Positions 1,774-17,721 of a stretch of 35,518 nucleotides of DNA are shown piece by piece. The translations under genes were made by a program, and so were the position numbers. Within the stretch, counting starts at the first letter, position 1. Every line of letters begins with the position of its first letter. This stretch comes from Candidatus Aenigmatarchaeota archaeon (lineage in GTDB: Archaea; Aenigmatarchaeota; Aenigmatarchaeia; Aenigmatarchaeales; JACQIB01): the NCBI GenBank assembly GCA_043799675.1, contig JAZDNN010000009.1, positions 1-35,518 on the forward strand, read 5' to 3'. Under the pieces are notes generated by a model, which was given only the letters and a program-made list of their open reading frames with translations, searched no databases and was not told the origin of the DNA.

Positions 1774-1775
1774 AG

Positions 1776-2243
1776 CTACAGGTTTCTTTCTAGGCACGCG
1801 TTGTAATCCTCAAAACCGTTTCTTCTATAGAAATCTATCGCTCTCGAATTCTGTGCAGAAACAACTACACGGACCCTGTTAACTTTCATCCTTTTGCACC
1901 AATCAAAGAACGCATCAACCAGTTTTGTCCCTGTACCGGCGCTCCTGTATTTTTCAAGTACAATCATGTTTTCCAGTTCTGCTATCATCATTCCGTTCCT
2001 GTAAAGTTCCGGATTAACCAACCCACCGACTGCATACCCAACCACTTCCTTTCCAGCCGTTGCCACAAAAGCAAATCCTTTATTGATTCTTTCCTCAAAA
2101 TACGTCCTTCCTTCAGGTCTCAGCGGCCAATCAGGATTTATCGTCTGGTCGAAATTTTCGTACTCCTTCTTGCAGAGTTCGTGATTCAAGCCCTGTATAC
2201 TCTTCAAATCGCCTGAAGTTGCGATGCGTATCTTAACGTCCAT
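1776..2243 (-). CDS. GNAT family N-acetyltransferase
   Basis: Motif A VLEKYRSAGTGTKL and motif B NSRAIDFYRRNGF. Confidence 0.9.
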   Translation of the reverse strand: MDVKIRIATSGDLKSIQGLNHELCKKEYENFDQTINPDWPLRPEGRTYFEERINKGFAFVATAGKEVVGYAVGGLVNPELYRNGMMIAELENMIVLEKYRSAGTGTKLVDAFFDWCKRMKVNRVRVVVSAQNSRAIDFYRRNGFEDYNACLERNL

Positions 2244-2275
2244 GATAAGAGATTACTTTCCGGTACTTTAAGCTT

Positions 2276-2545
2276 TCACTTCTTTTCCTTCTTCATGTAC
2301 GGCTTGCAGACCTTCCAGGCCTTGTCAACTTCCTTCTTCCCTTCATACAACAAAATCCCGGCATTGCGAAGGTGCGCGGAGACAACTGGCCTTCCTCTTC
2401 TCTCGTCGCTGATGCCGTCTTCCGACAGGCAATCCGACATGCAACCGATGAAATAAGCGGTCCGCTCATAGCTCATGTTTACAATTGCCCTGGCAAGCTC
2501 CTTCAACGTACCGTCATAACCTTCAACGGTTTGCGGGTGCTTCAT
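2276..2545 (-). CDS. Small hypothetical protein (helical)
   Basis: 89-aa ORF packed between rfcS and the GNAT gene on the same strand. Confidence 0.7.
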   Translation of the reverse strand: MKHPQTVEGYDGTLKELARAIVNMSYERTAYFIGCMSDCLSEDGISDERRGRPVVSAHLRNAGILLYEGKKEVDKAWKVCKPYMKKEKK

Positions 2546-2549
2546 CGAA

Positions 2550-3494
2550 TCACTTAACCATCGCGCTGAGCTGAGCCAAAAGAGCTTCTATCTGTATCTG
2601 CGGGGTGCCTCCGGAAGCTATCCTGTACTCGTATTCACCGACCTTCTCGATGAGCTCTATCTTTTCCTTCTCCGGGAGCTGCAACTCGAACACCTGCCTG
2701 CCGGCCTCGCGGATTATGTCCTCTCCCGCCACTCCGTCGGCCAGCAATTGAAGTAGAAGGGCGCGGGACTGAGCGAACCTTCCGACCACCGCTTCCTGCA
2801 GCATCTGCCTGACCTGATGCGGATGGGCGGCGGCAGCTATCTCATAAATGACCTCCTCGTTGATGGGCTGCTTCGAAGCTGCTGCTTGCAGGATATTGAC
2901 TGCCCTCCGCATGTCGCCCTCGGAAAGGTGGAGGACCGCCGGAATCGCATCGCCGTCGAGCTGCAGCTTCTCGCCCTCGGTTATCCGTTTGAGGAAGCCC
3001 TCCGCCTGCTGTTCGGTCAGGGGCTTGAACCGGAAAACGGCGCACCTGCTCTGGATGGGTTCGATTATCTTGCTCGAATAGTTCGCTATCAGGATGAAGC
3101 GGGTCGTCTCGCTGTAGCGTTCCATGGTCCTTCTCAGGGCATGCTGTGCCTCGGATGTCAACGAATCCGCTTCATCAAGGCAAATCAGCTTGCATTCCAC
3201 CGCTATCGGTTTTGTCCGGGCAAAATCCTTTATCTTGGTGCGGACAACATCGATTCCCCTCTCATCGGAGGCGTTCAGTTCAAGGTAGTTGGAGTGCCAA
3301 TTAGGGCCATACAGCTCGTGGGCTATCGCCAAGGCGGCAGTGGTCTTGCCGCAGCCGGGCGGACCGGCAAAAAGCATGTGCGGAAGGCCCCTGGTCAGGA
3401 AGGACTTGAGTCTGGCCAATATCTCGTCCTGCCCGACTATCTCGTCAAGCCTCGAGGGGCGGTACTTCTCGGTCCAGAGTTCGAAATCCGTCAT
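2550..3494 (-). CDS. rfcS: Replication factor C small subunit
   Basis: WTEKYRP, GPPGCGKT, ELNASDERGI, DEAD, IQSRC; no intein. Confidence 0.97.
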   Translation of the reverse strand: MTDFELWTEKYRPSRLDEIVGQDEILARLKSFLTRGLPHMLFAGPPGCGKTTAALAIAHELYGPNWHSNYLELNASDERGIDVVRTKIKDFARTKPIAVECKLICLDEADSLTSEAQHALRRTMERYSETTRFILIANYSSKIIEPIQSRCAVFRFKPLTEQQAEGFLKRITEGEKLQLDGDAIPAVLHLSEGDMRRAVNILQAAASKQPINEEVIYEIAAAAHPHQVRQMLQEAVVGRFAQSRALLLQLLADGVAGEDIIREAGRQVFELQLPEKEKIELIEKVGEYEYRIASGGTPQIQIEALLAQLSAMVK

Positions 3495-3529
3495 ATCGGT
3501 TTTATAATGCAGCGAACCGATTTAAACAT

Positions 3530-4057
3530 GTGAGAGCTTCAGTGATAGCCTTGACCGGGACGCCCGGAACGGGGAAAACCACGGTCGCCAAAATAGTGGC
3601 AAAGAGGACCGGGTGGACCCATCTCGACCTCAACAAGGAGATAGTCAGGAGGAAGCTTTACTCCGGTTATGACCACAAAAGAAAGAGCTACATAGCGGAC
3701 ATGAAGAAAGTGACCGCTTTCGTCAAAGAATTTGTCGCAAAGGAGAACGGCGTGATAGTTGACGGACACCTTTCGCATAATCTCCCCGCAAACGTCGTCG
3801 ATGAAGTCATAATCCTCAGGTGCAGCCCGGCAGTGCTGAAAAAAAGGCTGGAAGGGAAGAAATGGCCGAAGGAAAAGGTGGCGGAAAACGTGGAGGCCGA
3901 AAGGATAGGAATAGTGGCGTGGGAGGCACGGAAGAACCACAGGAACATAACCGAAATTGACACGACGCGGGCCGGCCAGGAAGCCGTCGCGACCAAGATT
4001 GAAAAGGCTTTAAAAGGTCGGCCACCGAAAGGTAAGGACATCGAATGGTTGAAGTGA
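3530..4057 (+). CDS. Archaeal adenylate kinase AK6/Fap7 family
   Basis: ITGTPGTGKTT-like P-loop (LTGTPGTGKTT), IVDGHLSH, LRC..L.KRL..K.W...KV.EN. Confidence 0.9.
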   Translation: MRASVIALTGTPGTGKTTVAKIVAKRTGWTHLDLNKEIVRRKLYSGYDHKRKSYIADMKKVTAFVKEFVAKENGVIVDGHLSHNLPANVVDEVIILRCSPAVLKKRLEGKKWPKEKVAENVEAERIGIVAWEARKNHRNITEIDTTRAGQEAVATKIEKALKGRPPKGKDIEWLK

Positions 4058-4061
4058 TTTC

Positions 4062-4238
4062 ATGCCAAAAGTCAAAATACCGGCTGCAATGAACAGGATA
4101 TACGAAAGGATGTGGATATGCATGCGCTGCAACAGCCACATAAGGGCCAACGCGGATGCGGTAGCCGAAAAAAGAGTGAAATGCCGGCGCTGCGGGTACA
4201 AGGGATTGCGGCCGAAAAGCAAGGAACGAAAGGTCTGA
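4062..4238 (+). CDS. rpl40e: 50S ribosomal protein L40e (58 aa, absent from the ORF track)
   Basis: Manual translation MPKVKIPAAMNRIYERMWICMRCNSHIRANADAVAEKRVKCRRCGYKGLRPKSKERKV; ICMRC...KCRRCGYKGLRPK signature. Confidence 0.92.
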   Translation: MPKVKIPAAMNRIYERMWICMRCNSHIRANADAVAEKRVKCRRCGYKGLRPKSKERKV

Positions 4239-5066
4239 GTGAGCAACTTGCTGCCATACATGGAACTTCTTAGACCGGTCAACGGGGCAATGGCCATAGC
4301 GGGCGTAATCATAGGGGCGGCGCTCGGAGGAGTAGGATTCATGCCCCCGCCGACGGAGCTCCTGATTGCGGCACTGGTCTCGTTCCTGATATCCGGCGCG
4401 GGGATGACGCTGAACGATTACTTCGATTTCAGGATAGACTTCATGAACCGCCCCAACCGGCCGCTGCCCAGCGGCAGGATAAGCACGAACGCGGCAATGT
4501 CCTGGGCCGCAATACTGTATGGCACCGCAATAGGGTTCTCGGTGTTCGCGCTGCCGTGGCAGCTCACGTCCCTGGCAGCCATGAACATACTGGCCACCTT
4601 CCTGTACGCGTGGTGGCTGAAACGGACGGCAGTGGGAAATTTCATGGTCTCGTGGCTAGTTGCATCGACGTTCATCTTCGGAGCCATGCTCGGGGTCATA
4701 AACCCCGCGGTGGTCGCGGTTGCCGGAATGGCGTTCACCATCAACCTCTCAAGGGAGATAATCAAATCCCTTGAAGACGTCAAGGGGGATAAGGTGAACG
4801 GGGCGAAGACGTTCGTGGTCGCAATCGGAAGGGACGCAGCCGAGTGGGCATCTCTGTCGTTCCTGTTCATCGGGATAGGGATGTCAATCGTGCCGTACGT
4901 ACTGGGGCAGCTCAAGTTCGGCTACCTGCTGCTGATAATCCCCTCGGACTTGCTTGCCGCATGGGCAGGCTGGCAGACGTTTGAAAACACCGGAAAGGCG
5001 CAAAAATACGTGAAATATGCGATGATACTGGCACTAGTGGCCTTCGCACTCGGCCTTGTGTTTTAA
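4239..5066 (+). CDS. Digeranylgeranylglyceryl phosphate synthase (UbiA prenyltransferase family)
   Basis: LLRPVN, NDYFDFRIDFMNRPNRPLPSGRI, REIIKSLEDVKGD; multiple TM helices. Confidence 0.88.
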   Translation: MSNLLPYMELLRPVNGAMAIAGVIIGAALGGVGFMPPPTELLIAALVSFLISGAGMTLNDYFDFRIDFMNRPNRPLPSGRISTNAAMSWAAILYGTAIGFSVFALPWQLTSLAAMNILATFLYAWWLKRTAVGNFMVSWLVASTFIFGAMLGVINPAVVAVAGMAFTINLSREIIKSLEDVKGDKVNGAKTFVVAIGRDAAEWASLSFLFIGIGMSIVPYVLGQLKFGYLLLIIPSDLLAAWAGWQTFENTGKAQKYVKYAMILALVAFALGLVF

Positions 5067-5954
5067 CGCCCCGCCGATTCCTTCCTCATACCTTACCTTG
5101 GGCTGCCAACCGAGCTCGCGCTTCGCCTTCGTGCAATCGAAAATACGGTCAGCTGCGATGGTATCCACGGCAGAGCTTTTCACAAAGAGCCTTCCCACCG
5201 TGCGGAGCAACCAAAGCGGAACATGCAGCTTCGGGGGTTTCACCCCCTGCACACGGGCTATTACGCCGAGGAGCTCCTCCTGCGTCCTCGCGTCATCGCT
5301 GACAATATCATACGCCTCGCCCGGCCTCCCTTTGTCCTTTGCCAGAACGAGAGCGGATACCAGATCATCGACATGGGTCCACTGCAGACGGTTCTTTCCC
5401 GAGCCGGCTATGACCGCTTTCATCCGTTTCACCATTCCGAACAGCTTCAGGAAACCCTCGTCACATCCCGGACCATAAACAAGAGTAGGCCTCAGCACAA
5501 CGGCTCCCAACTCACGGGCCAGCTTATCCGCCGCCGCCTTGCTCTCGCCGTAGACATCCGTTGGCACGAAAGGTGTCTTCTCGGTTATCGTAGAGCGGGA
5601 ACCCTTTCCGTAAATCTTGCCGTAGACCGAAGAGGAGCTGAGGTAAACCAGCCTCTTTCCGTGCCCGGCTTCCAGGATATTGCGGGTCCCTTCCAGGTTT
5701 ATCCTGAACATCTCCTTGCGCGGGGCGTTTGAAACCTGAGCAGCCAAATGATAAACGACATCGATTCCCTTCATTGCCTCGAACACGGCGCTCCGGTCCA
5801 TGATATCCCCGTGAATTATCTGCACGGAGCCGCCCCAAAGCCCCCTTGCCTTGTCCTGGTCGCGGACAAGGACGCGCACCTTCTCCCCTTTCTTCAACAG
5901 GGCCGGAACAAGGTGCCTGCCTATCCTGCCGGTCGCACCGGTGACCAATATCAT
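5034..5954 (-). CDS. NAD-dependent epimerase/dehydratase (extended SDR)
   Basis: ILVTGATGRIG, YHLAA, SSSSVYG, YGESK; start chosen at MILVTG (alternative 5963). Confidence 0.9.
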   Translation of the reverse strand: MILVTGATGRIGRHLVPALLKKGEKVRVLVRDQDKARGLWGGSVQIIHGDIMDRSAVFEAMKGIDVVYHLAAQVSNAPRKEMFRINLEGTRNILEAGHGKRLVYLSSSSVYGKIYGKGSRSTITEKTPFVPTDVYGESKAAADKLARELGAVVLRPTLVYGPGCDEGFLKLFGMVKRMKAVIAGSGKNRLQWTHVDDLVSALVLAKDKGRPGEAYDIVSDDARTQEELLGVIARVQGVKPPKLHVPLWLLRTVGRLFVKSSAVDTIAADRIFDCTKAKRELGWQPKVRYEEGIGGALKHKAECEGH

Positions 5955-6003
5955 GAAGAACATTCTATCGGGAGCCTTTAATAATGGAACGGGAATCATA
6001 TCT

Positions 6004-6471
6004 ATGCACAAGTACGTCCGATTGGCAATTTCGATAATCATATGCCAGATGGCAGGGATAATCGGCGCGGTGTTCACCACGCCGAACATAGCGACCTGGT
6101 ATGCCACACTGAACAAACCGATGTTCACACCGCCCAACTGGGTATTCGGTCCCGTCTGGCTGACCCTCTACACCTTGATGGGAATCGCACTCTGGTTGAT
6201 ATGGAGCAAAGGCATAGGCAAGGAAACGAAACCTGCTCTCTATCCGTTCGCGGCCCAACTTGGACTCAACACCATATGGTCGATAATGTTCTTCGGATTG
6301 CAAAGCCCGTTGCTGGGGCTGGTGACAATAATACCGCTCTGGCTGCTCATCGCCTACACGATATTCAAATTCTACAAACTGGACAGGAATGCAGCTTACC
6401 TGCTGATTCCGTACATACTCTGGGGCACGGTAGCCACATACCTGAACATCGGAGTATTCCTCCTGAACTGA
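6004..6471 (+). CDS. tspO: TspO/MBR tryptophan-rich sensory protein
   Basis: WYATLNKPMFTPPNWVFGPVWLTLY...LNTIWSIMFFG...LIPYILW; start at MHKYV. Confidence 0.93.
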   Translation: MHKYVRLAISIIICQMAGIIGAVFTTPNIATWYATLNKPMFTPPNWVFGPVWLTLYTLMGIALWLIWSKGIGKETKPALYPFAAQLGLNTIWSIMFFGLQSPLLGLVTIIPLWLLIAYTIFKFYKLDRNAAYLLIPYILWGTVATYLNIGVFLLN

Positions 6472-6519
6472 GCTTCCGGGGACACATTTCTTTAAAAATC
6501 ACAACAAAGAACACTTTGC

Positions 6520-6819
6520 ATGGCAGGCGAGATTGACAGGATAATCAAGGAGAAGAACCTGAAGGCGGGGGATGCGGGCTACCACACCCTCCGGCCGCTT
6601 GAGAACAACGGCAGGATACGTGCCCTTGTAATCAAAGGGGAGAACCAGGCGCACATCGAATACACCTGCCCGAGTTGCGGGCATTCGGGATACAGACAGC
6701 AGGCATGGACGGTAGCAAGCAAAGGCTCGAAGTTCCGTTTCATGACAAAATGCGACAAGTGCGGGTTCGAGATAAAGATATCGAAGCTGAAGGGCGAGAA
6801 AAAGAAGAAAGAAAAATGA
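6520..6819 (+). CDS. Basic Zn-ribbon hypothetical protein
   Basis: CPSC and CDKC pairs, Lys-rich C-terminus; TTTAAAAA upstream. Confidence 0.7.
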   Translation: MAGEIDRIIKEKNLKAGDAGYHTLRPLENNGRIRALVIKGENQAHIEYTCPSCGHSGYRQQAWTVASKGSKFRFMTKCDKCGFEIKISKLKGEKKKKEK

Positions 6820-6849
6820 GCATTTAACCTTTTCCGGCGAATCATCTGC

Positions 6850-7002
6850 ATGGCACCGCTCTACCGGTCCGAACATCACAGGCTCCAGACGACGTTCGAC
6901 CCGAAGGACGTGGAACCCGGCTACATTTTCGGCGGCGATAAAATCTGGACGGCTGTACGACAACGGAAATACGAAAGAAAGGGCGGTAACCTGCTCGGAT
7001 AG
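6850..7002 (+). CDS. Possible 50-aa small protein
   Basis: Manual translation MAPLYRSEHHRLQTTFDPKDVEPGYIFGGDKIWTAVRQRKYERKGGNLLG; fills the gap exactly; TTTAA at about 6823. Confidence 0.4.
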   Translation: MAPLYRSEHHRLQTTFDPKDVEPGYIFGGDKIWTAVRQRKYERKGGNLLG

Positions 7003-7008
7003 ACGCAA

Positions 7009-7779
7009 TCAGACCTTCATCTTCTTGAAAGCGTACGTGCCGACCATGATTATTCCGATAGTAAATGCACCCAAGACGCTGATGTCAAATAACACTGGGA
7101 AGCGCGCGACACCCACAAGGACCGAGCGCAGTGCGTCAACGCAATAGGTCAATGGATTCAGCAGGGTGAGCGGCTCGAACCATGCGGGCAGGTTGCTGAT
7201 TGAGAACAGGGCGCCCGAGAGAAGGAACATGGGGAAAACCACGAAACCGGAAATCATCTGGAAGCCCTCGGGACTTTCCATCCGGGAGCCGATTATCAAG
7301 CCAAGACTGACCATCGAGGCGGTCGAAAGAAATATTATCAGTACCGCGGAGGCGATTGACAGCGGGGTGAACAGCAGGCCTGGTATGATCCCGGAAAAGG
7401 TCAGCACCATTCCGAGAACCAGGAGTATCATCGACTGCAGCAGGGAATCGGTGGCCCCGCCAAGGACCTTTCCGAAAAACACCGAGGTCCGCGAGATGGG
7501 GGCAACCAGCACTTCTTTCAGGAAGTCTATCTTCCTGTCCCACACGATATACGCGCCGAAATAAATCGAACCGAACAGAAGTGTCATTGCGATCATTCCG
7601 GGGAATATGAACGCCTGGTAAGTGGTTCCGGGGACCTCCACGCTCGCCCCGAGACCGCCGCCAAACACAACCAACCAGATTATCGGTGTCACTACGGAAG
7701 ACACTATTCTTGACCGCTCGCGCAGGAAGACCTTCACTTCCCGGTACCACATCGCATAGATGCCCGTGATATTGCTCAT
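7009..7779 (-). CDS. ABC-2 type transporter permease (DrrB-like)
   Basis: FIFPGMIAM, FLKEVLVAPISR, LSGALF, LNPLTYCVDALR. Confidence 0.93.
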   Translation of the reverse strand: MSNITGIYAMWYREVKVFLRERSRIVSSVVTPIIWLVVFGGGLGASVEVPGTTYQAFIFPGMIAMTLLFGSIYFGAYIVWDRKIDFLKEVLVAPISRTSVFFGKVLGGATDSLLQSMILLVLGMVLTFSGIIPGLLFTPLSIASAVLIIFLSTASMVSLGLIIGSRMESPEGFQMISGFVVFPMFLLSGALFSISNLPAWFEPLTLLNPLTYCVDALRSVLVGVARFPVLFDISVLGAFTIGIIMVGTYAFKKMKV

Positions 7780-8744
7780 TTGTTCGACCTCACGTTCATC
7801 ACCCGCTGCGCCCAGCCGCCTTCGGGGGTGTTGTCGCGGATTTCCTTTCCGGTATAATGGATGAAAACGTCCTCCAACGTAGGCCTGTGCACCTGTACGG
7901 ATTCCACGTCACCCACAACTTTCAGGATTTCATTCAGGTGTTTGCTGGCGTCGGTCACCGTAAGCAGGAAGGAGCCGTCCTTGGCCTCGACCTTCTTCAC
8001 AAACGGAAGTTCCTTCAGTCTGCCGGAATCGCATCCCTTGCATTTGAGTTCTATGACGTCGCCGCCGACCACGCGCTTGAGGTTGTCCGGAGTATCCAGC
8101 GCGACTATCTTCCCGAGGTCTATTATCGCGATGCGGTCGCACAGCCTGTCGGCCTCGTCCATGTAGTGCGTGGTGATTATGACGGTCATTTTCTCCTCGC
8201 TTGAAAGTTTTTCTATGTACTTCCAGATGTTCTCGCGCGCCTGCGGGTCCAGCCCCAGCGTGGGCTCGTCCAGGAAAAGCACCTTCGGATGGTGCATCAA
8301 TCCTCGGGCAAGCTCGAGCCTCCTGCGCATCCCGCCGGAGTAGTTCTTCACCCTTTCGTTCCTGCGCTCGTACAGGTCGACAAGTTCGAGCACCTCCTTG
8401 ATCCGCTTCTCGCGCAGCTCGGCCGGCATCCCGTACAGAAGGCCGTGCAGCTTGAGGTTTTCATAGCCCGTAAGCGTGTCATCGGAGCTGGGGTCCTGAA
8501 ACACTATGCCGATGGATTTTCTCACCTTGCTCGAATCCTTCAGCACATCGAAGCCGTTCACCGTAGCGGAACCCGAGGTAGGCTTTCTGAGGGTCGCAAG
8601 CATGAGAAGCATGGTGGATTTTCCCGCTCCGTTCGGACCCAGCAGGCCGAATATCTCCCCGTCCTCAATCTTCAAATCTACATCGTTAACGGCGGTCAGT
8701 TCCTTGTATTTCTTGGTCAGATTCTTGGTTTCTATGATAGGCAT
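7776..8744 (-). CDS. ABC transporter ATP-binding subunit (DrrA-like)
   Basis: GPNGAGKST, YSGGMRRR, LFLDEPT, TTHYMDEA; 4-nt overlap with the permease. Confidence 0.95.
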   Translation of the reverse strand: MPIIETKNLTKKYKELTAVNDVDLKIEDGEIFGLLGPNGAGKSTMLLMLATLRKPTSGSATVNGFDVLKDSSKVRKSIGIVFQDPSSDDTLTGYENLKLHGLLYGMPAELREKRIKEVLELVDLYERRNERVKNYSGGMRRRLELARGLMHHPKVLFLDEPTLGLDPQARENIWKYIEKLSSEEKMTVIITTHYMDEADRLCDRIAIIDLGKIVALDTPDNLKRVVGGDVIELKCKGCDSGRLKELPFVKKVEAKDGSFLLTVTDASKHLNEILKVVGDVESVQVHRPTLEDVFIHYTGKEIRDNTPEGGWAQRVMNVRSNK

Positions 8745-8797
8745 CCGATAACACGGCGTTCCGTCTTTTTTAAAACAAAAGGACTTGCAGGTGAGAC

Positions 8798-8868
8798 TGG
8801 AGCCTCGGGCGAGAGTTTCGCCAACCTCCCTTGTGCACCTTTGGGAAGTGCATCGAACTCGCGACCTT
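8798..8868 (-). pseudogene. Orphan 3' half of a tRNA-Thr (variable loop, T-arm, acceptor 3' strand, CCA) with a 37-nt T-loop intron at 59/60 (8815-8851)
   Basis: Minus strand AAGGTC-GCGAG-TTCGAT[GCACTTCCCAAAGGTGCACAAGGGAGGTTGGCGAAAC]T-CTCGC-CCGAGGC-T-CCA; acceptor strand identical to the tRNA-Thr at 9567; BHB central helix TTCG/CGAA with ATG and ACT bulges; no D-arm or anticodon arm adjacent. Confidence 0.8.
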
Positions 8869-8871
8869 ATT

Positions 8872-9507
8872 TTAACACGAGAATCTTTTTATCAAATCAA
8901 CCTTTTCTGGATTCTTGAGAGGAATGCAAGCAATGATTTTTGCAGCATCCCGCCTGTGAACGTATATCTGATGATAGGTATGGCCCTTGTATAACCATGG
9001 GCATGATTTGAAAGGTATTTTATTTCTTTTGAACATATCTTTACAAAACCTACCAAGTTCGGCACTCGCAGTACAAAGACCGAATCCTGAACCTTTCTTG
9101 CCGCCGTCAGTATCCAGAAGGCCGGCAAGAAAATGAACATGATATTTATCAGGCATTTCTGGAACAGATGCGATCCTTGCTTTCCTGCCCACTGTCATGC
9201 CAAGACCCTCCAAGAATTTATAAATCTGTATCGATTCTATCCGGCTGACATATAATATTTTTCTACTCTTCCTGTCCCTGGGAACAACATTAGGTTCAAC
9301 ATGAAATAGTCTTTGAAATATGGAACCGTAAAATCTGCAAAACCCTTCGAACTCGCATAAAAAATAAATCATATACCTTTGCTGCAATTTCCCGTTTGGT
9401 CTTCTGGAAGCTGTTTTGGGCATGCTGCCGTCACCGGTTATTAGACCGCAAAGGTATGCCAAATCAGCACTCCATTTCTTAGGTAAAGAAACATCGTACA
9501 TCATCAT
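8872..9507 (-). CDS. Free-standing two-motif LAGLIDADG homing endonuclease-like protein
   Basis: AYLCGLITGDGS and HFLAGLLDTDGG motifs; no intein splicing termini; visibly AT-richer than the flanks; TTATATT about 20-25 nt upstream. Confidence 0.88.
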   Translation of the reverse strand: MMMYDVSLPKKWSADLAYLCGLITGDGSMPKTASRRPNGKLQQRYMIYFLCEFEGFCRFYGSIFQRLFHVEPNVVPRDRKSRKILYVSRIESIQIYKFLEGLGMTVGRKARIASVPEMPDKYHVHFLAGLLDTDGGKKGSGFGLCTASAELGRFCKDMFKRNKIPFKSCPWLYKGHTYHQIYVHRRDAAKIIACIPLKNPEKVDLIKRFSC

Positions 9508-9566
9508 ATTACAGTATTCTCGAATATAAGCTTACTACAGGTACGCTCTAACATCTATTACAAGGA

Positions 9567-9663
9567 TGGAGCCTCGGGGGGGAATCGAACCCCCGACCTT
9601 GTCCTTACCAAGGATTAGCGGGCTGCACTGAGCCTCACGCTCTACCGACTGAGCCACCGAGGC
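9567..9663 (-). tRNA. tRNA-Thr(GGT) with a 21-nt non-canonical intron at 28/29 (9615-9635)
   Basis: GCCTCGG acceptor, GCTC/GAGC D-stem, anticodon stem TG|TCC/GGACA, loop TTGGTAA, T-arm GGGGG-TTCGATT-CCCCC, encoded CCA; BHB AGCG/CGCT with TGA and AAT bulges and inner helix GGCT/AGCC; TTTTTAAG upstream. Confidence 0.93.
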
Positions 9664-9741
9664 AAAGACAGATGGTCTCCGCTCTTAAAAAGGATTCCGC
9701 AAAGAGGAAGCAATTTATCCTTGTGAAAGCGTTGTTGATGA

Positions 9742-11106
9742 ATGGTATCATCAAACGTGCATTACATCGACCAGCGGAAGGCGATGGAAGGATTGAGCGA
9801 GCTTGGTGCCTGCAAGACCAGATTATACGAGGGCGGATGGGGAAGGGTTACCGTGGAATATCGCGGCAAAGTGTCGATGGATGATGTGCTAAGAGTGATG
9901 GAATACACCGAAAAGTTTCCAGGCAACGGTACGGGAGGAAAACTCACCGGAACAAAAAAGTCCGGCTACCACCTTATCATGGACGGGGACGGAATAATGC
10001 TGTCGTTTTCCAGAAAGACCGATAATAAACGTGATATAGGAGCGTATTTCGAAAACAACCCCGAAATGCGGGTCACCATAACTGCCGACAAAACCGGTGT
10101 CTATCCGCAACGAATAGGTCATGCTTGGGGTATCTGGCAGATGCTGGAAACGAAGAAAAGCCTGACCGCAAAAGACGCAATCTACCAGTTCTGCAAATCT
10201 CTCGTCCGCCGGGAGCTCCACGACATCAACAAAAGCGACATAGGCGGGCTCGACAGGGAGTTTGAGGAAATAATGTCCTCGACGGACATGCAATTATTCA
10301 ATCCGGCCGCATGCAGATATTTTGGCCTTGAAAAGACGAACGGCATCCTGCTGGTCGGTCCCCCGGGAAACGGTAAAAGCATCATGATGGCGGCAATAGC
10401 CAAGGAAACCGAAGCGAACGTCCTGCTCCTCGACCCGAACGATGTGGCAAGCTATTTTCACAATGAAACCGAGGCAAACATACACAAGCTGTTCATCGAG
10501 GCCGAACAGATGTCGAAGGACACCGACAGACCCGTGATAATGATGTGCGACGAGGCAGAGAGGCTCATGTACGACAGGGCAAAGACCAACCAATGGGACC
10601 TGCTGGTGACAAACGCCATGCTTCGCGAGTTTTCCTCGCTGGGGACGGACAAGAACATAACGTTCCTCGGAGCCACGAACATGCCGTGGGAGATAGACCC
10701 GGCATTCTACCGACAAGGAAGGATAGAGAAAGTCATATATGTGCCATCGCCCGGCAACGATGCCAAAAAGGCGATACTGAAGGCACAGACCAGGGCGATG
10801 CCGATAAAGGACGTCAACCTGGATGAGATTGCCGACAGGACCGACGGATGGTCCGGGGCCGACCTGAAAAGCCTGTGCAACCAGGCGGCAAAATTCGCCG
10901 TAGAGAGAATCGCGGGCGACAGGAAAAAATTCCGGAAACTTGACGTGAACGAACTGATAAGGAACAATGAAGGGGTAATGCAACAGGACTTCGACAAGGC
11001 GCGCCCGATTGTCAAGGTGAACGAGCAGCAGCAGAAAGAATGGGAAAAGAATTACGATATGTGGAAAGGAAAGGGAATCAAACCGCCGGAAAATCTGTAC
11101 CGTTAA
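9742..11106 (+). CDS. AAA ATPase (single classical AAA module, CDC48/PAN-like) with an unrecognised N-terminal domain of about 170 aa
   Basis: GPPGNGKS, MMCDEAE, ATNMPWEIDPAFYRQGR, TDGWSGADL. Confidence 0.88.
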   Translation: MVSSNVHYIDQRKAMEGLSELGACKTRLYEGGWGRVTVEYRGKVSMDDVLRVMEYTEKFPGNGTGGKLTGTKKSGYHLIMDGDGIMLSFSRKTDNKRDIGAYFENNPEMRVTITADKTGVYPQRIGHAWGIWQMLETKKSLTAKDAIYQFCKSLVRRELHDINKSDIGGLDREFEEIMSSTDMQLFNPAACRYFGLEKTNGILLVGPPGNGKSIMMAAIAKETEANVLLLDPNDVASYFHNETEANIHKLFIEAEQMSKDTDRPVIMMCDEAERLMYDRAKTNQWDLLVTNAMLREFSSLGTDKNITFLGATNMPWEIDPAFYRQGRIEKVIYVPSPGNDAKKAILKAQTRAMPIKDVNLDEIADRTDGWSGADLKSLCNQAAKFAVERIAGDRKKFRKLDVNELIRNNEGVMQQDFDKARPIVKVNEQQQKEWEKNYDMWKGKGIKPPENLYR

Positions 11107-11921
11107 ATTGAGGAAAGTACAGAGCGCACCGATTCCGCCGCCCTGTCCATGACGGCCTTCTGCTCCTTGGTCAGATTGACCTTCTCAATCCTTTCCATAC
11201 CGTTTTTCCCGACAACGCAGGGAACGCTCAGGGCGACATCGGAATAACCGAACTCGCCGTGCAGCGAGCAGGACAACGGAATCAAGGCCTTCTCATCGTT
11301 GACTATGGCGGCGACGACCCTCCTGACTATGGAGGCAACGGTGAACCATGTTCCGCCCTTGAGTTTGACCACATCCAGACCGGCCTGCTTCACCTGTGCG
11401 TCATCGAACTCCTCGTTCCCTATGGCAAGCATGTTTTTGCCGTGCTCACCGATTATATATCCGGGACCCTCCATGCGACTCATGTCGGTCAAGGTGGATA
11501 TTCCAAGTACGCGATGACGGTCCCTTATCAAATTGACCGCAAACTGGGTCATCACATCGACAGGATTGGTGATTATCACGAAAACCGAACGGCCGTCGTC
11601 AAGCCTGCCCAGCGTATCCTTCAGTATTTTCCCGTTCTCCCTGGCAAGCGAATTCCTGTCCATCGTTCCGGCCTTGCTCAGCGGCAGGCCTGCTACAAAA
11701 ACAATCACATCGGCCCCACGGCACTCCTCAAGGCTCGCTTCTTTGACGTGCAAACGCTTGCCCAGCGCCCTTGCGGCATGCTGAAGGTCCATGACCTCGC
11801 CCTTAACGCCGTCAACGATATCGTAGAGCTGCAGTCTTTCAATCGGTATTGTGCTGGATGCCAGGGCATAGGCTATCTGGGAACCCACCCTTCCCGCACC
11901 GCCTATCACCGCTATCCGCAT
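11103..11921 (-). CDS. Short LDH/MDH-family 2-hydroxyacid dehydrogenase
   Basis: IAVIGGAGRVG, ITNPVD, DMSR, IGEHG, SVPCVVGKNG; start at MRIAVIG. Confidence 0.85.
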   Translation of the reverse strand: MRIAVIGGAGRVGSQIAYALASSTIPIERLQLYDIVDGVKGEVMDLQHAARALGKRLHVKEASLEECRGADVIVFVAGLPLSKAGTMDRNSLARENGKILKDTLGRLDDGRSVFVIITNPVDVMTQFAVNLIRDRHRVLGISTLTDMSRMEGPGYIIGEHGKNMLAIGNEEFDDAQVKQAGLDVVKLKGGTWFTVASIVRRVVAAIVNDEKALIPLSCSLHGEFGYSDVALSVPCVVGKNGMERIEKVNLTKEQKAVMDRAAESVRSVLSSI

Positions 11922-11970
11922 GGCCAGAATGGCAATCATGCATTTTAAAAGCTGCCGCACAATCCGTTGT

Positions 11971-12885
11971 ATGCGTGCCTTTCTCGCGGTGCTAGGGATA
12001 ATCGTTGTTTCAGGTTGCATAGCGCAAGATGCATGGACAGGCAACGGCAATTACATCCCGACCGTGCACCCGTCGGAAGGCGTCCATGCGAACGTATCAA
12101 GCGGGATGCTTTTCCCCAACCTCCGATGGATGCTGCCGATAAAATACTACCTCAATCTCAGCGAAGCCGGCGTATTTGACGAGGAAAATTTCATCATATC
12201 CGTGCAGATGTGGGAAAACTGGACGGACGGTACCGTAACCTTTGCGAGGGCCTACAGTCCGGAAGAAGCGGGCGTGTACGTGCACTGGAAAAGGACCACG
12301 GACACGACCGAACCCGGAACGGTAAACCTGGGAATGGCCGGTCCGAACAGGGTGGTCGATACGAGCCTTTACAACTTCTCCAGCCACGCGGACCTGCTGC
12401 TGGCTCCCAACTACCTCAGCACCTGCCCGCGGTACCTCGTGATAGCGCATGAGATAGGGCACGTTCTGGGACTGAGTCACTCCAATGACTCGGACAGCCT
12501 GATGTACCCTATGCTTTACTGCTGGCAAAAACTTACGGAAACGGACAAGGAAAAACTCAAGACAATCTACTCGACCGAGGAGCTTCCTGACCTGGAGTTC
12601 CGGAACGTCAGCGCGAGCAGATCGGACAACACGCTCGAAGTGTATTTCGAGCTCCATAACCGCGGAATCATGGATTCCCCAAACACCGCCGTACAATTGT
12701 CGGACGGGAACAAAATCCTGTGGGAGGCCGAAATCGCCCCCATCAACCCTATACGCTTCGGCTGGTGGCGCGTCACGGTGCCAGGAGCCTTCCCAAAAAC
12801 GCTTGTGCTGAAAGTGGACCCGGACAACACCTTCCGTGAACTGGACAAAGGAAACAACATGTTCACCCTCGGTGCAAACGGTTAA
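11971..12885 (+). CDS. Lipoprotein-anchored matrixin (M10/metzincin) metalloprotease with a C-terminal CARDB-like domain
   Basis: Signal ...IVVSGC, HEIGHVLGLSH, Met-turn SLMYP, LPDL...VDPDN.FRELDKGNN. Confidence 0.88.
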   Translation: MRAFLAVLGIIVVSGCIAQDAWTGNGNYIPTVHPSEGVHANVSSGMLFPNLRWMLPIKYYLNLSEAGVFDEENFIISVQMWENWTDGTVTFARAYSPEEAGVYVHWKRTTDTTEPGTVNLGMAGPNRVVDTSLYNFSSHADLLLAPNYLSTCPRYLVIAHEIGHVLGLSHSNDSDSLMYPMLYCWQKLTETDKEKLKTIYSTEELPDLEFRNVSASRSDNTLEVYFELHNRGIMDSPNTAVQLSDGNKILWEAEIAPINPIRFGWWRVTVPGAFPKTLVLKVDPDNTFRELDKGNNMFTLGANG

Positions 12886-12909
12886 ATATCAGAATGGACA
12901 GCTCGGTGC

Positions 12910-13194
12910 ATGGTAACACAGGTGCATGCGGCGCACATATTGGTGAAGACGGAGCAGGAAGCAAAGCAGCTCCTTGAGGAAATCAGGAGCGGCAAGATGG
13001 ACTTCGGAAAGGCGGCCCAACTGAAATCGATATGCCCGTCCGGAAAGAAAGACGGTGACCTTGGCTGGTTCGGCCATGGTGCCATGGTAAGGGAATTCGA
13101 ACAGGCGGCATTCAACACCCCGAAGGGCCAGATAGCGGGGCCGTTCAAGACCCAGTTCGGCTGGCACATCCTGAAGGTCCTGGAGACCCGTTGA
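12910..13194 (+). CDS. ppiC: Parvulin-type peptidyl-prolyl cis-trans isomerase
   Basis: AAHILVK, SICPSGKKDGDLGWF, MVREFEQAAF, KTQFGWHI. Confidence 0.95.
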   Translation: MVTQVHAAHILVKTEQEAKQLLEEIRSGKMDFGKAAQLKSICPSGKKDGDLGWFGHGAMVREFEQAAFNTPKGQIAGPFKTQFGWHILKVLETR

Positions 13195-13219
13195 GCCGGC
13201 CTTAAACCCAAGAAAGCGC

Positions 13220-14014
13220 CTAACTGACGGTGATGAAACTCTCCGGGCTGAAATATTCGACTCCGGCAACGGTCGCCCTGAGACGGATATACACGGTCTT
13301 GCTGCCGGCGGAAGGAGCCACCATGCTTATGGCAAACTTCTGCGGACATATGCCCGCCTGGGTCTCCGTACCGGACGTGTATTGCCCGGGAGAAGTCCCC
13401 CAATCGACGGAAGTGTAATCAATTTCAGCAGCAGAGCAACCGCCCACTTTCCATTCGACCGTGAAGGCAGAATCCGGAGAAACGCGGGACGGCGCAGAAA
13501 TCAGCATCACCGCCGGTTCATTAGACTCTTCCGTTCCCACATACTCCTCGTTTGACCAGTAACCTATCCCGTTGACCACGCAATACGTCCTGAAGTATGT
13601 TTTTTCGCTTTCAGGCATCGATATCACATCGGCATTGAAATCAGCAGGAACCGAACCGGACTGTGCAGCAGTGACGCTCCTGTAGCCGGAATCATCGGTA
13701 TCGGATCCGGGCTGGAAGTTTCCCGGATGCGAAACAGCGTCATAGAAAACACGGGTATCGTTCGTGGAAGAGCCCAACGGACCCTTGACCCGCCAACCGA
13801 CATTGAACGTCTTTCCCTCCATCGCGCTGGAAGGTGCGGCTATTATAGAAACGGAAACCTGCGTCCCGGTCCCCGTTTGATTGGTCGGAACCTGGCCGCC
13901 CTGTCCGAACAGCCGCCCGACCAACGCCGGATTCTGAGCCAGATAATATCCGACGGCCAAGAATGCAATAATCAACAGAGTGATATACGTCGTTCGCATG
14001 AGAGGTGTTATCAA
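13220..14014 (-). CDS. Membrane-anchored/secreted protein with two tandem beta-rich (Ig-like) repeats
   Basis: N-terminal TM helix, Thr/Gly linker; repeats VSIIAAPSS..TFNVGWRVKG...YFRTYCVVNGIGYWSNE and VMLISAPSR..AFTVEWKVGG...YIRLRATVAGVEYFSPE. Confidence 0.75.
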   Translation of the reverse strand: MITPLMRTTYITLLIIAFLAVGYYLAQNPALVGRLFGQGGQVPTNQTGTGTQVSVSIIAAPSSAMEGKTFNVGWRVKGPLGSSTNDTRVFYDAVSHPGNFQPGSDTDDSGYRSVTAAQSGSVPADFNADVISMPESEKTYFRTYCVVNGIGYWSNEEYVGTEESNEPAVMLISAPSRVSPDSAFTVEWKVGGCSAAEIDYTSVDWGTSPGQYTSGTETQAGICPQKFAISMVAPSAGSKTVYIRLRATVAGVEYFSPESFITVS

Positions 14015-14032
14015 AACCCGTACTTATAGCTT

Positions 14033-14656
14033 CTACCTGACATCGACCAGCTCGGCCTTCCTGACCGCGTTCCTGACAAGCCCTTCAACATTTATCGCTT
14101 CCTCCATCTTTCCTATGAACTCCGGCTCCGCACGGGTTTCCGGCCGCTCGGCGATCATGAACGTGCAACAATCCGAGTAAGGGAGGATGCTGAGCTCAAA
14201 CGTCCCTATTTTCTTTGCCGTATTGACGGTCTCGTTCTTCTCAGCCCCCAGAAGTGGCCGCAATATTTTCATCGTGGTCGCCCTGCCTATCACGTACATG
14301 TTTTCCAGCGTCTGGCTGGCGACCTGGGCAAGATTGTCGCCGGTGACAAGGGCCGCCGCCTTTTCCCTCTTCGCTATCTTTGCAGCTATCCTGAGCATGA
14401 ACCGGCGATATACTATCATCCTGTACTTGGCGGGGACGTATTTCACAACCTCGGTCTGCGTCTCGGCAAAAGGCACCATGTACAGCCTGCCTCCGCCAAG
14501 CACCTTCACCAAGTCGATTATCTTCCGGCGCACACCTGCCTGCTGCGGGGTGTAATTGTGGAAATGGACGAACTCCACCTTATGTCCCAGGTTCTTCATC
14601 CGCCAGGCCGCGACCGGGCTGTCTATGCCGCCGGAGAGCAAGGCAAGAAGCTTCAT
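14033..14656 (-). CDS. thiI: ThiI-type tRNA sulfurtransferase, catalytic PP-loop domain only
   Basis: LLSGGIDSPVA, YRRFMLRIA, TGDNLAQVASQTLEN, LRPL, PYSDCC; start at MKLLALL. Confidence 0.82.
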   Translation of the reverse strand: MKLLALLSGGIDSPVAAWRMKNLGHKVEFVHFHNYTPQQAGVRRKIIDLVKVLGGGRLYMVPFAETQTEVVKYVPAKYRMIVYRRFMLRIAAKIAKREKAAALVTGDNLAQVASQTLENMYVIGRATTMKILRPLLGAEKNETVNTAKKIGTFELSILPYSDCCTFMIAERPETRAEPEFIGKMEEAINVEGLVRNAVRKAELVDVR

Positions 14657-14706
14657 GGAACAGATTTCCTCGCAGCCTTTATATCCACGACAACAAAATA
14701 GTCGGC

Positions 14707-14883
14707 ATGGGGCTGAACTACGCAATCCTCATGACCATGCAGGTCATCACGGTAATGATACTCATCTTTGGCGGCTATGCCTCCCACAACAACTGGATGT
14801 ATCTGTTCGCTGTGCTTGTGGTAGTGGCGATGGTCGGGAGCGCGCGCCTGATGGGATACGTAAGGTCTTCAACGAACGGTTAG
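14707..14883 (+). CDS. Small two-TM membrane protein (58 aa, not in the ORF track)
   Basis: MGLNYAILMTMQVITVMILIFGGYASHNNWMYLFAVLVVVAMVGSARLMGYVRSSTNG; TTTATAT at 14678-14684. Confidence 0.6.
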   Translation: MGLNYAILMTMQVITVMILIFGGYASHNNWMYLFAVLVVVAMVGSARLMGYVRSSTNG

Positions 14884-15927
14884 CTTCGACACCCGCAGAC
14901 CTATCAGCCGTATTTTTCGCGAATCTTCCAAGAAAGGTTTTAACAGCTCCTTTGCCGTCTCCAACGCGACCGCAATATCGTCGGTAGGGGCATCAACCGT
15001 CCTGCTCTTGTCGTGAGTATCGAAATTCTCAAAACGTATTACAAGCGTAACCGTTCTGTAAAGGTAACGGCCTTCATCGAGCTGTTCCTTTACCTCCTTG
15101 GCCATGCCTTCCAGCGTCCTGTGAAGGAGCGCGCGGTCCCTCGTATCCTTCTCAAACGTGACGTGTCTCCCCATGCTCTTCGGTTCCCACTTTTCAACCA
15201 GCGGGCTGTCATCAATCCCGCGCGCGGACTCCCACATCGTCGCGCCGAACTTGCCGAACATTTCCGTGAGCTGGTCCTTCCTCAGCTTGCGGAGCTTCCC
15301 TATCGTCGTTATCCCCATGCCTTTCAGAACATCATACGTCTTCGGACCGATTCCCGGCAGTTCCCTGGGTTCGAGAGGCCGCAGGAAAGCCAGCACATCA
15401 TCAGGTCTCACGAGGGTCAGGCCGTCAGGTTTCCTGAAATCGCTCGCAATCTTCGCGACCAGCTTGTTTGGAGCAATCCCTATGCTGCAGGTGAGCCTTT
15501 CCTTTTCCCGGATTTCCTTCTTTATTTTCTCGGCGATATCCAACGCCTTTTCCCAGCTGCCCGCCTTCTTGCTGACTTCTATATACCCCTCGTCTATTCC
15601 GGCGGGCTCGAATGCATCCCCAAATCCGCGGAGGATTTCCATGATGCTGGCTGAGATGCGGAGATAGAGCTCGAAATTGACGGGCAGATAAATGCACGGC
15701 CCGGCCGGGGGGCCCGGACACAGCTTCCAGGCGCGCGATATGGGCATCCCGGAACGGATGCCGTATTTTCTTGCCGCATAACTTGCAGTGCTTACCACTC
15801 CCCTTCCGCTGCCGCCCTTCGGGTCGGCACCTACCACAAGAGGCTTTCCCTTAAGCTCCGGTCTCTCCCTCTCCTCAGCCGAAGCGAAAAAGGCGTTCAG
15901 GTCCATGTGCATGACGATGCGGGGCAT
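14869..15927 (-). CDS. dinB: DNA polymerase IV (Y family)
   Basis: HMDLNAFFAS, TASYAARKYGIRSGMP, GIDEGY, AKIASDFRKPDG; start 15927 or 15936; the longer ORF extension runs into tRNA-Arg. Confidence 0.95.
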   Translation of the reverse strand: MPRIVMHMDLNAFFASAEERERPELKGKPLVVGADPKGGSGRGVVSTASYAARKYGIRSGMPISRAWKLCPGPPAGPCIYLPVNFELYLRISASIMEILRGFGDAFEPAGIDEGYIEVSKKAGSWEKALDIAEKIKKEIREKERLTCSIGIAPNKLVAKIASDFRKPDGLTLVRPDDVLAFLRPLEPRELPGIGPKTYDVLKGMGITTIGKLRKLRKDQLTEMFGKFGATMWESARGIDDSPLVEKWEPKSMGRHVTFEKDTRDRALLHRTLEGMAKEVKEQLDEGRYLYRTVTLVIRFENFDTHDKSRTVDAPTDDIAVALETAKELLKPFLEDSRKIRLIGLRVSKLTVR

Positions 15928-15956
15928 ACTATCCATTCGGAACGGCGAAATAAAGC

Positions 15957-16087
15957 TGGCGGACGCGCCGCGAACTTCGAGCACAAACAGCCTTCGGCTG
16001 TCAATGTATTCGAACGCGGGTCTAAGGCTCTCTCCTTGATTTCGATATTCGGAGGCCCCAATTCTATCCAAGCTAAACTACGCGTCC
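15957..16087 (-). tRNA. tRNA-Arg(CCG) with two introns: 19 nt at 37/38 (16030-16048) and 35 nt at 59/60 (15974-16008)
   Basis: GGACGCG/CGCGTCC acceptor, anticodon loop CT-CCG-A|A with BHB CTCC/GGAG; T-arm CCGCG-TTCGAA|T-CGCGG with BHB TTCG/CGAA; encoded CCA. Confidence 0.92.
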
Positions 16088-16139
16088 GCTTTTCACTAAG
16101 CCGCCTGAAGCTTAAAAGGAAGCCAAGCAAATTCTGCTC

Positions 16140-16709
16140 ATGATACCGAAAATCAACATCTACTATTCTTACATCTATGACCAAGCCGTCCATGTACTAT
16201 CGGGCAAGAAGTACAACAATAAATGTGTTGACGGCGGGCGCAAGTTCGTATGCAGGCTCAAAGGCAATTCGGCAAAGATACTGCCGAAGGCGCTCAAGGC
16301 CTATGAGGAGGTATCCGGCCTCCGATGGAAGGATCCTTGCATAGAGGTGTTTGCAGTACACGGTATTCCGTGGGACTTCAGCTGGCCGGTGACCATCAAG
16401 GTAAGGGAGAACGAGAAAGATGCGGTGGAGACCCTGATACACGAACTGGGACACCTGCTAACGTTCAGGAACGAGGAAAGAATCCGATGTAACAACCGTA
16501 TCTCAATCAAATACAGAAAGGAGAACCAGACGGTCAGGGAACACCTCCTCCTGCATGCGATGCTTTGGAAACTATATACAAAGCTTTTCGGCGAGCACGA
16601 GCTCCACAACATGATAATCGGCTATGAGAAATGGACGGACCATTACCGCGCCTGGCAGATAGTCAAGAAGGAAGGGGCGGACAATATAATCAAGGCTTAC
16701 ATACGCTAA
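16140..16709 (+). CDS. Hypothetical protein with a zincin-like HExxH motif
   Basis: ETLIHELGHL and a downstream REHLLLHA. Confidence 0.65.
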   Translation: MIPKINIYYSYIYDQAVHVLSGKKYNNKCVDGGRKFVCRLKGNSAKILPKALKAYEEVSGLRWKDPCIEVFAVHGIPWDFSWPVTIKVRENEKDAVETLIHELGHLLTFRNEERIRCNNRISIKYRKENQTVREHLLLHAMLWKLYTKLFGEHELHNMIIGYEKWTDHYRAWQIVKKEGADNIIKAYIR

Positions 16710-16737
16710 CTTAAAAGAAGCGCCGAGGAACCTTCAT

Positions 16738-16813
16738 GGGCTCGTAGTCTAGCTTGGTAGGATCCGAGGTTTGGGACCTTGAGACCGGTGTTCGAATCAC
16801 CGCGAGCCCACCA
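16738..16813 (+). tRNA. tRNA-Pro(TGG), intronless
   Basis: GGGCTCG/CGAGCCC acceptor, CGAGG-TTTGGGA-CCTTG, CGGTG-TTCGAAT-CACCG, ACCA. Confidence 0.96.
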
Positions 16814-16848
16814 CGAGAACTTTTAAACAGGCTTGCACAACCCGTTGT

Positions 16849-17697: not shown

Positions 17698-17721
17698 AAC
17701 GTCCGGATTCCAACTGCTGGC

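Follow-up and report, generated by a model that had tools for sequence, protein, structure and literature searches.

A LAGLIDADG endonuclease gene between two 3′ halves of an archaeal tRNA-Thr(GGT) gene: a probable cassette that replaces one tRNA half

Archaeal rRNA introns carry LAGLIDADG genes and are the classical setting of these enzymes in archaea. For fungal mitochondria, a different arrangement is known from the mORF "gene hybrids" of atp6 in Allomyces macrogynus and of atp6, atp9, cox2 and nad3 in Glomus sp., in which a gene of the LAGLIDADG or GIY-YIG type moves together with a foreign version of its host gene's 3′ end, and the native end, which this version replaces, is displaced behind the open reading frame (ORF) (PMC3630166). 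Close relatives there resemble the displaced native end more than they do the inserted one (PMC3630166). The free-standing GIY-YIG enzyme SegB of phage T4 is encoded in a tRNA gene cluster and has a site of 27 base pairs (bp) that includes the conserved T-arm motif of tRNA; the excerpted account gives cleavage and homing as shown, with SegB driving its own inheritance together with that of the tRNA genes at its flanks (PMC2330249). For archaea, the available excerpts of a paper covering both split tRNAs and homing endonucleases mention rRNA introns only (PMC10714607), and full-text searches of the literature open without subscription yielded no report of endonuclease genes located at tRNA genes of archaea. 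Here we analyse a stretch of 35,518 nucleotides (nt) from Candidatus Aenigmatarchaeota archaeon (contig JAZDNN010000009.1 of assembly GCA_043799675.1), referred to as the window, in which a LAGLIDADG ORF stands between a complete tRNA-Thr(GGT) gene and a second 3′ half of the same tRNA. The reading that we favor, and consider probable, is that of a free-standing LAGLIDADG cassette specific for tRNA-Thr(GGT), which would insert between tRNA positions 42 and 43 (42|43) and keep the tRNA whole by replacing one of its halves. New here are the stranded native 3′ half, the conserved relic of a 5′ half and the defined junction.

The source assembly is a metagenome bin of 0.75 Mb in 45 contigs from a small-genome archaeon and is 83% complete; the window is its contig C31. 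An earlier description made from the letters alone, called the sequence-only reading in the following, had given the minus-strand order as complete tRNA-Thr(GGT), 59-nt spacer, LAGLIDADG ORF and second tRNA 3′ half, and all four elements lie where it placed them. The elements that carry the argument, with the introns identified by their bulge-helix-bulge (BHB) geometry, are the following.

9663..9567, minus strand: complete tRNA-Thr(GGT) in current use (Rfam tRNA, 49.7 bits; gathering score 29)
9663..9601, minus strand: lineage-type 5′ part of the in-use tRNA, positions 1-42 (exon comparison with relatives)
9600..9567, minus strand: deviant 3′ half of the in-use tRNA, positions 43-76 plus CCA (T stem unlike all eight relatives without the ORF)
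9635..9615, minus strand: 21-nt BHB intron in the 5′ strand of the anticodon stem (BHB geometry)
9566..9508, minus strand: spacer of 59 nt between in-use tRNA and ORF
9555..9530, minus strand: decayed 5′-half relic of tRNA-Thr(GGT), from the 3′ strand of the D arm through the anticodon loop (local alignment)
9507..8872, minus strand: intact LAGLIDADG ORF of 211 amino acids (Pfam LAGLIDADG_3)
8868..8798, minus strand: displaced lineage-type 3′ half of tRNA-Thr(GGT), positions 43-76 plus CCA, starting three bases after the ORF stop
8851..8815, minus strand: 37-nt BHB intron of the displaced half at T-loop position 59/60 (BHB geometry)

The two 3′ halves are identical at 30 of 34 exon bases. The mismatches fall at positions 50, 52, 62 and 64 and make up two T-stem pairs that covary. 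Identical stretches of 7 nt and 11 nt are common to both halves, and the direct repeats D2 and D3 are recorded for the displaced half. The displaced half consists of 34 exon bases and the 37-nt intron, for which a central helix of 4/4 pairs and the 5-bp T stem as outer helix are observed. The 21-nt intron of the in-use tRNA, absent from the sequence-only reading, has a central helix of 4/4, an outer helix of 1 and an inner helix of 4 pairs, and after its removal the loop carries GGT. ARAGORN gave no anticodon for this tRNA because the intron interrupts the anticodon stem in its 5′ strand. The same intron site is also occupied in L002, L004, L022, L041, L042, L056 and L057. The insert of ~730 nt holds a single gene and forms an AT-rich island, with a GC content of 0.404 for the ORF compared to 0.539 for the window and 0.52-0.55 for the neighboring genes.

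Which of the two 3′ halves is native can be read from relatives. Eight tRNA-Thr(GGT) genes without the ORF, all from relatives of the same order, served as comparison set. The T stem of the displaced half is found in six of them (L002, L003, L004, L005, L006 and L011) and other stems in two, while the T stem of the in-use half is found in none. The exons of the displaced half are equal to the tRNA-Thr(GGT) 3′ halves of G001, G004 and G017 at 34/34 bases, compared to 30/34 for the in-use half, and since this equality with functional 3′ halves holds throughout, chance similarity is not the explanation. An intron at this 59/60 site of the T loop is also present in G004, a member of the same family. 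On the 5′ side, exon bases 1-48 of the in-use tRNA are identical to G017, with the anticodon-stem intron at the same place. It follows from the T-stem and exon comparisons that the in-use gene is a hybrid, in which a lineage-type 5′ part is combined with a deviant 3′ half. The comparisons support the view that the displaced 3′ half is the lineage's own ancestral type, stranded behind the ORF. The sequence-only reading had taken this half as ancestral and had named a prevalence of its T stem among relatives without the ORF, together with the 59/60 intron, as support; both are what we find, the intron in one relative. The Thr(CGT) and Thr(TGT) tRNAs of this genome, considered as donors of the in-use 3′ half, are ruled out by their different T arm.

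An arrangement of this kind might also be an assembly artefact in which variants of one tRNA locus from two strains have been fused. The genome is a metagenome bin in 45 contigs and public contigs break near tRNA sequences in both of the sediment-metagenome runs that contain parts of the stretch (shares 0.11 and 0.05), as expected for such an artefact. These two are the only public runs with parts of it, and no RNA run is listed among them. One X2 contig of 609 nt, 89% identical to the window, nevertheless covers tRNA, 59-nt spacer and ORF start free of gaps, which shows the left junction to be present in a second organism as well. Together with the linkage of ORF and tRNA in seven other assemblies and with the structured, covarying nature of the differences between the halves, this independent contig makes an artefact very unlikely. 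X1 contributes a contig of 481 nt, 89% identical, over ORF positions 8876..9171 and one of 254 nt with a single difference over 8522..8775. A further X1 contig of 1950 nt has the window tRNA with its intron (window 9640-9663; one difference) at its very end, and its other 1860 nt do not match the window upstream of the tRNA. Another organism or strain thus has a near-identical tRNA gene with other sequence on its 5′ side.

The ORF protein matches Pfam LAGLIDADG_3 with an E value of 3.5e-7. Two LAGLIDADG motifs with both motif aspartates are present in it and in six of seven homologues; the homologue of L022 has a Tyr in motif 2 and has lost the motif aspartate. A sequence search of the PDB reached E 0.38 at best, for an I-DmoI/I-CreI chimera, which made a search by fold necessary. 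The AlphaFold model (predicted local distance difference test, pLDDT, 84.6; predicted template modelling score, pTM, 0.85) consists of two pseudo-symmetric alpha-beta-beta-alpha-beta-beta-alpha domains. Its top PDB fold matches are the intein endonuclease domains TliVMA and PI-PfuI as well as I-DmoI, I-Tsp061I and I-SceI, with Foldseek E values of 1e-9 to 3e-7 against archaeal monomeric enzymes, a template modelling score (TM-score) of ~0.7 normalised to I-DmoI and an identity of 14-19%. As judged by motifs and modelled fold, the ORF product is a free-standing monomeric LAGLIDADG homing endonuclease with two motifs, for which site-specific cleavage of a long DNA target (~20 bp) is predicted.

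Homologues with 51-58% identity lie at seven other distinct loci. These are L022 from genome G038, L056 from G328, L057 from G213 and the metagenome loci L037, L040, L041 and L042, where L037 is identical to L038, L039 and L043 and is counted once. Including the window, eight of eight distinct loci are at tRNA-Thr(GGT). This bears out the expectation of the sequence-only reading that ORF homologues are associated with a tRNA. Its expectation of a duplicated 3′ half at these loci failed: such a half is found at none of the seven, all of which have the mirror form, with a 5′-half relic upstream in five. At all seven loci the ORF runs directly into base +1 of a complete tRNA-Thr(GGT) and its stop codon lies within the tRNA. 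A TATA box is located ~29-32 nt before the ATG. L023, whose ORF is a relative with 31% identity, shows this usual form in a fresh state, as the tRNA 5′ half upstream of its ORF equals 31 of the 32 first bases of the complete tRNA downstream. The ORF family is found in 4 of 371 genomes of the class, spread over four different families; the phylum-level search covered the same 371 genomes and returned nothing further. The homologue of L042 is frameshifted. Patchy distribution with damaged copies is the usual picture for homing-endonuclease genes.

Two side observations concern the setting of the homologues. At L041 and L042, a tRNA with a large intron, Leu(TAA) by eye, lies ~60 nt before the ORF start, which places these cassettes within tRNA gene clusters. 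More distant ORF homologues with 25-27% identity lie inside archaeal 16S rRNA genes (L026 641-3458 and L032 2153-3087).

The stretch between in-use tRNA and ORF is more than the spacer with TATA-like box proposed by the sequence-only reading. Its length of 59 nt and the box stand, while plain spacer it is not, as it holds a relic of a tRNA-Thr 5′ half. The relic is clearest in L057, where it lies upstream of the ORF and its alignment with the intronless 5′ half begins in the D arm and extends as far as position 42; none of 2000 shuffles reaches the score. For the window relic aligned with the intronless tRNA-Thr(GGT) 5′ half, 21 of 2000 shuffles do so. Homology to the L057 relic was evaluated by mononucleotide shuffles, with p values of 0.008 for the window, 0.0005 for L056, 0.009 for L040, 0.086 for L037 and 0.098 for L041; the upstream regions of L042 and L022 show no similarity to it. 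The relics have departures from the tRNA sequence in common and must therefore have been decayed already in the common ancestor of the cassettes and carried along since. Because the window cassette bears the relic of the usual form, it probably derives from this mirror form. The single clean insertion of the sequence-only reading is replaced by a more complex history.

Three features converge on one position in the tRNA. The relic of L057 ends at position 42, the displaced half of the window begins at position 43, and the complete tRNA-Thr(GGT) of L057 contains a 31-nt BHB intron exactly at 42|43 (L057 2199-2229, G213:C74). One phosphodiester thus emerges as the insertion point of the family. 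An intron at 42|43 is found in one of seven occupied loci of the usual form and in none of the eight loci without the ORF. The sequence-only reading had placed the insertion at the junction of anticodon stem and variable loop, and the relic end and intron of L057 mark this junction independently.

The 31-nt BHB intron at 42|43 of the L057 tRNA could also suggest a giant ORF-bearing BHB intron reaching from position 42 to the displaced half, or a split tRNA gene whose parts are joined in trans. At the true joints, only 1/4 of the central BHB pairs is formed. With offsets of ±3, two combinations reach 4/4 central pairs, with at most one flanking pair and with wrong exon joints, so that no full motif results. 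The upstream tRNA, moreover, is complete with its own 3′ half and CCA. Giant intron and split tRNA are rejected on these grounds, the lack of a BHB motif across the junctions and the complete upstream gene, and we regard either as extremely improbable.

We return to the reading of a half-replacing cassette at 42|43. A tRNA gene severed in two would be lethal, and for this reason the cassettes would bring a substitute for one tRNA half, by which the gene is made whole again. The enzyme would introduce a double-strand break near 42|43 in an unoccupied tRNA-Thr(GGT) gene. An occupied copy would serve as template for the repair, with homology provided by the tRNA halves. In the usual form, the ORF and a new 5′ half would be placed before the resident 3′ half, and the old 5′ half would decay upstream. 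In the window form, the resident 5′ part with its own promoter would be joined to an imported intronless 3′ half with recoded T stem, followed by relic, cassette promoter and ORF, and the resident 3′ half would be stranded behind. The recoded stem beside the junction may protect the resident gene. Of the recoded positions, 50 is 8 nt and 52 is 10 nt away from the 42|43 junction. A typical LAGLIDADG site spans ~22 bp, and both positions would fall inside such a target, with 62 and 64 as compensating changes. The T-loop intron, at 17 nt from the junction, is probably outside a ~22-bp site and without a role.

The sequence-only reading had proposed that the enzyme cuts the ancestral T-arm allele. 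In the full form of this mechanism, the recoded 3′ half, spacer and ORF would be a mobile unit that homes repeatedly into naive genes, with the functional tRNA 5′ part and the stranded half as homology arms. A donor of the window form would indeed be well matched to either flank of a break at 42|43, the close spacing of positions 50 and 52 to the junction suits a recoded target, and the 89% identical relative has the same left junction. SegB of phage T4 shows that homing endonucleases can recognise tRNA T-arm DNA, according to the excerpted account (PMC2330249). Repeated homing of this unit is difficult to reconcile with the other seven family loci, none of which has a duplicated 3′ half, and with the cassette itself, which bears the 5′-half relic of the mirror form. 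In addition, G038 has the T stem of the supposed target beside its own motif-damaged endonuclease gene, and the T-loop intron is too distant from the junction for a ~22-bp site. We consider this mechanism unlikely.

A single event offers another route to the window form. A cassette of the usual form would have recombined once with the resident tRNA, for example as a circle by single crossover, to give two complete hybrid tRNAs flanking the ORF, and the redundant downstream hybrid would then have lost its first 42 bases. Such a rearrangement accounts for the relic in the spacer and for the hybrid upstream tRNA. It is also in line with the 3′ end of the ORF, which aligns with the homologues up to their tRNA base +1 and is followed by six unrelated bases and then position 43. 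The extra deletion would have to end exactly at 42|43, the junction that is independently marked in L057, and no decay is seen in the stranded half. A one-off origin is thus possible, though doubtful.

Several observations weigh against the half-replacing cassette as a mobile element. The form with a replaced 3′ half is known from the window and the partly seen X2 relative only, and may be a one-off rearrangement that does not spread. In the two sediment-metagenome runs, no contig bridges ORF, displaced half and ABC gene, so that the right junction rests on this assembly alone. An empty site of a close relative could not be defined, as the ±1.5-kilobase loci in the family have no common neighbors; the flanking AAA ATPase and ABC ATPase have only paralogue-level matches of ~30-44% identity in five genomes of the same family. 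The significance of the window relic taken by itself is modest, with 21/2000 shuffles and eight loci tested. Only two of ~22 bases around the junction differ between the resident and the ancestral allele, which may not suffice for immunity of the resident gene. The frameshift in L042 and the loss of the aspartate in L022 imply that activity is not universal in the family. The ORF tree, built from 11 rows (eight family members, with L042 joined over its frameshift with X, and three distant outgroups), is an unresolved star and thus does not tell apart the order of the two forms, nor transfer from loss. The identity of ~55% among all members fits old vertical descent with losses equally well as transfer.

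Duplicated tRNA 3′ ends are the classic scar of integrative elements, and the stretches of 7 nt and 11 nt shared by the two copies would be consistent with the remnant of such a virus or plasmid, in which the tRNA 3′ end was duplicated as attachment site and the ORF is a passenger. The sequence-only reading had seen no integrase nearby, and the searches agree: Phage_integrase (PF00589) has no match across the whole 83%-complete assembly, and the Pfam scan of the neighbor genes, the only place covered for serine recombinases, detected neither these nor an integrase. The neighbors scanned, from window 445 to 18885, are housekeeping genes (ABC transporter, AAA ATPase, malate/lactate dehydrogenase, RFC, ThiI, Y-family polymerase and others), with no viral or plasmid genes among them near the cassette. 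The insert is small for such an element, at ~730 nt, and the ORF family is at this tRNA in 8/8 loci without integrases. The remnant of an integrase-type element is therefore scarcely credible.

The remaining features of the locus concern its expression and its ends.

9664..9700, minus strand: putative tRNA promoter region with a TATA-like box ~28 nt before base +1 (from sequence)
9530..9508, minus strand: putative TATA-like box and short run-up to the start codon, with the A/T box ~25 nt before the likely start
8889..8869, minus strand: linker of final ORF codons, ORF stop codon and 3 nt (comparison of ORF 3′ ends)
8797..8760, minus strand: oligo-T run 3′ of the displaced half (read from sequence)

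In the relatives without the ORF, an A/T box is found as far before base +1 as the TATA-like box of the window tRNA. In tRNA genes of relatives without the ORF, the TATA box is fixed at ~28-34 nt from base +1, the same distance as between box and ATG at the homologous loci. This fixed distance recalls the leaderless transcription of tRNAs in Nanoarchaeum. Judging from the position of its own box, the ORF mRNA is probably leaderless as well. The linker lies where base +1 of the complete tRNA starts in the homologous loci. The oligo-T run is likely the original tRNA terminator, which would now terminate the ORF transcript. A complementarity of 7 bp between promoter region and linker was spotted by eye; it is absent from the inverted repeats recorded with a minimum length of 10.

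Other pairings of LAGLIDADG genes with tRNAs are observed in this genome (G000). At C10:21928-22590 (L020 1153-1815), a LAGLIDADG ORF runs into base +1 of a multi-intron tRNA-Gln(CTG), which occupies the following ~130 nt; a candidate for a relic upstream of this cassette was unconvincing by eye. On the minus strand of C6:13686-12711, a tRNA is followed after 19 nt by a LAGLIDADG ORF whose frame continues through a whole tRNA-Pro, which gives the same tRNA-ORF-tRNA layout as in the window. The assignment of the upstream tRNA by ARAGORN as Thr(GGT) is doubtful, as its acceptor stem differs from those of the Thr tRNAs. At C10:53201-53965, a LAGLIDADG ORF and a tRNA of the opposite strand are arranged tail to tail, and the ORF stop codon overlaps the tRNA 3′ end; this tRNA is Phe(GAA) by eye, compared to Leu(gag) in ARAGORN. 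Of 16 tRNA matches above the Rfam threshold in G000, 15 are longer than 76 nt, and introns are thus the rule in this genome. The archaeal RNase P RNA (RF00373) has no match in the 83%-complete assembly.

If the cassette acts as proposed, tRNA genes would be homing sites for free-standing archaeal endonuclease genes, in addition to the known rRNA introns and inteins. The difficulty of landing in an essential gene would be solved as in the fungal mitochondrial mORFs, by bringing along a spare gene end. The window keeps both the imported and the displaced half and so provides a concrete target, the 22 bp around 42|43 in ancestral and recoded version. How disrupted tRNA genes arose in archaea has long been debated as an open question, and half replacement is a candidate mechanism for the separation of tRNA halves and for introns at odd positions. 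Half-swapping cassettes could even drive the disruption of tRNA genes in small-genome archaea in general, a speculation to which we attach rather little weight. Were it true, stranded orphan halves would be raw material for split tRNA genes, and the 31-nt intron of L057 at the marked 42|43 junction would either shield the gene from the enzyme or be what a lost cassette has left behind. The relic, which is recognisable while the proteins have diverged to ~55% identity, would then be kept for a function, either as homology arm of the cassette or as a promoter or operator to which the cassette's enzyme binds.

Compared to the described systems, the locus shares individual features with several of them. 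With I-DmoI, I-Tsp061I, PI-PfuI and TliVMA, the ORF product has in common the fold and two motifs with acidic residues. In contrast to these enzymes, which belong to rRNA BHB introns or inteins, the window ORF is free-standing and no BHB motif spans it. As in tyrosine-integrase elements that target tRNAs, a duplicated tRNA 3′ end keeps the tRNA gene whole; here, however, no integrase is detected, the insert of ~730 nt has a single gene, and the two ends differ at covarying pairs and by an intron. From the split tRNA genes of the Nanoarchaeum type, the locus differs by its complete gene and by the lack of BHB-forming complementarity at the junctions. Like SegB, the ORF is a free-standing endonuclease gene among tRNA genes. 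It differs by its enzyme family and by its archaeal instead of phage genome; duplication of a half-tRNA is not reported for SegB in the excerpted account, and homing, shown for SegB, is only inferred for the cassette.

The closest match are the mORFs, as far as the excerpts of their description go. In both cases, an endonuclease ORF is located between an inserted gene end upstream and a displaced native end downstream, without an integrase, and the displaced end is nearer to relatives than the inserted end, here with 34/34 compared to 30/34 bases. The host gene, in contrast, is an archaeal chromosomal tRNA gene and not a mitochondrial protein-coding gene. The window ORF has its own start codon and TATA-like box and is not in frame with the host gene, its family mostly replaces the 5′ half, and recoding is achieved through covarying stem pairs instead of synonymous codons. 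By analogy, the window cassette is thus a tRNA counterpart of the mORFs and not a strict member of this class.

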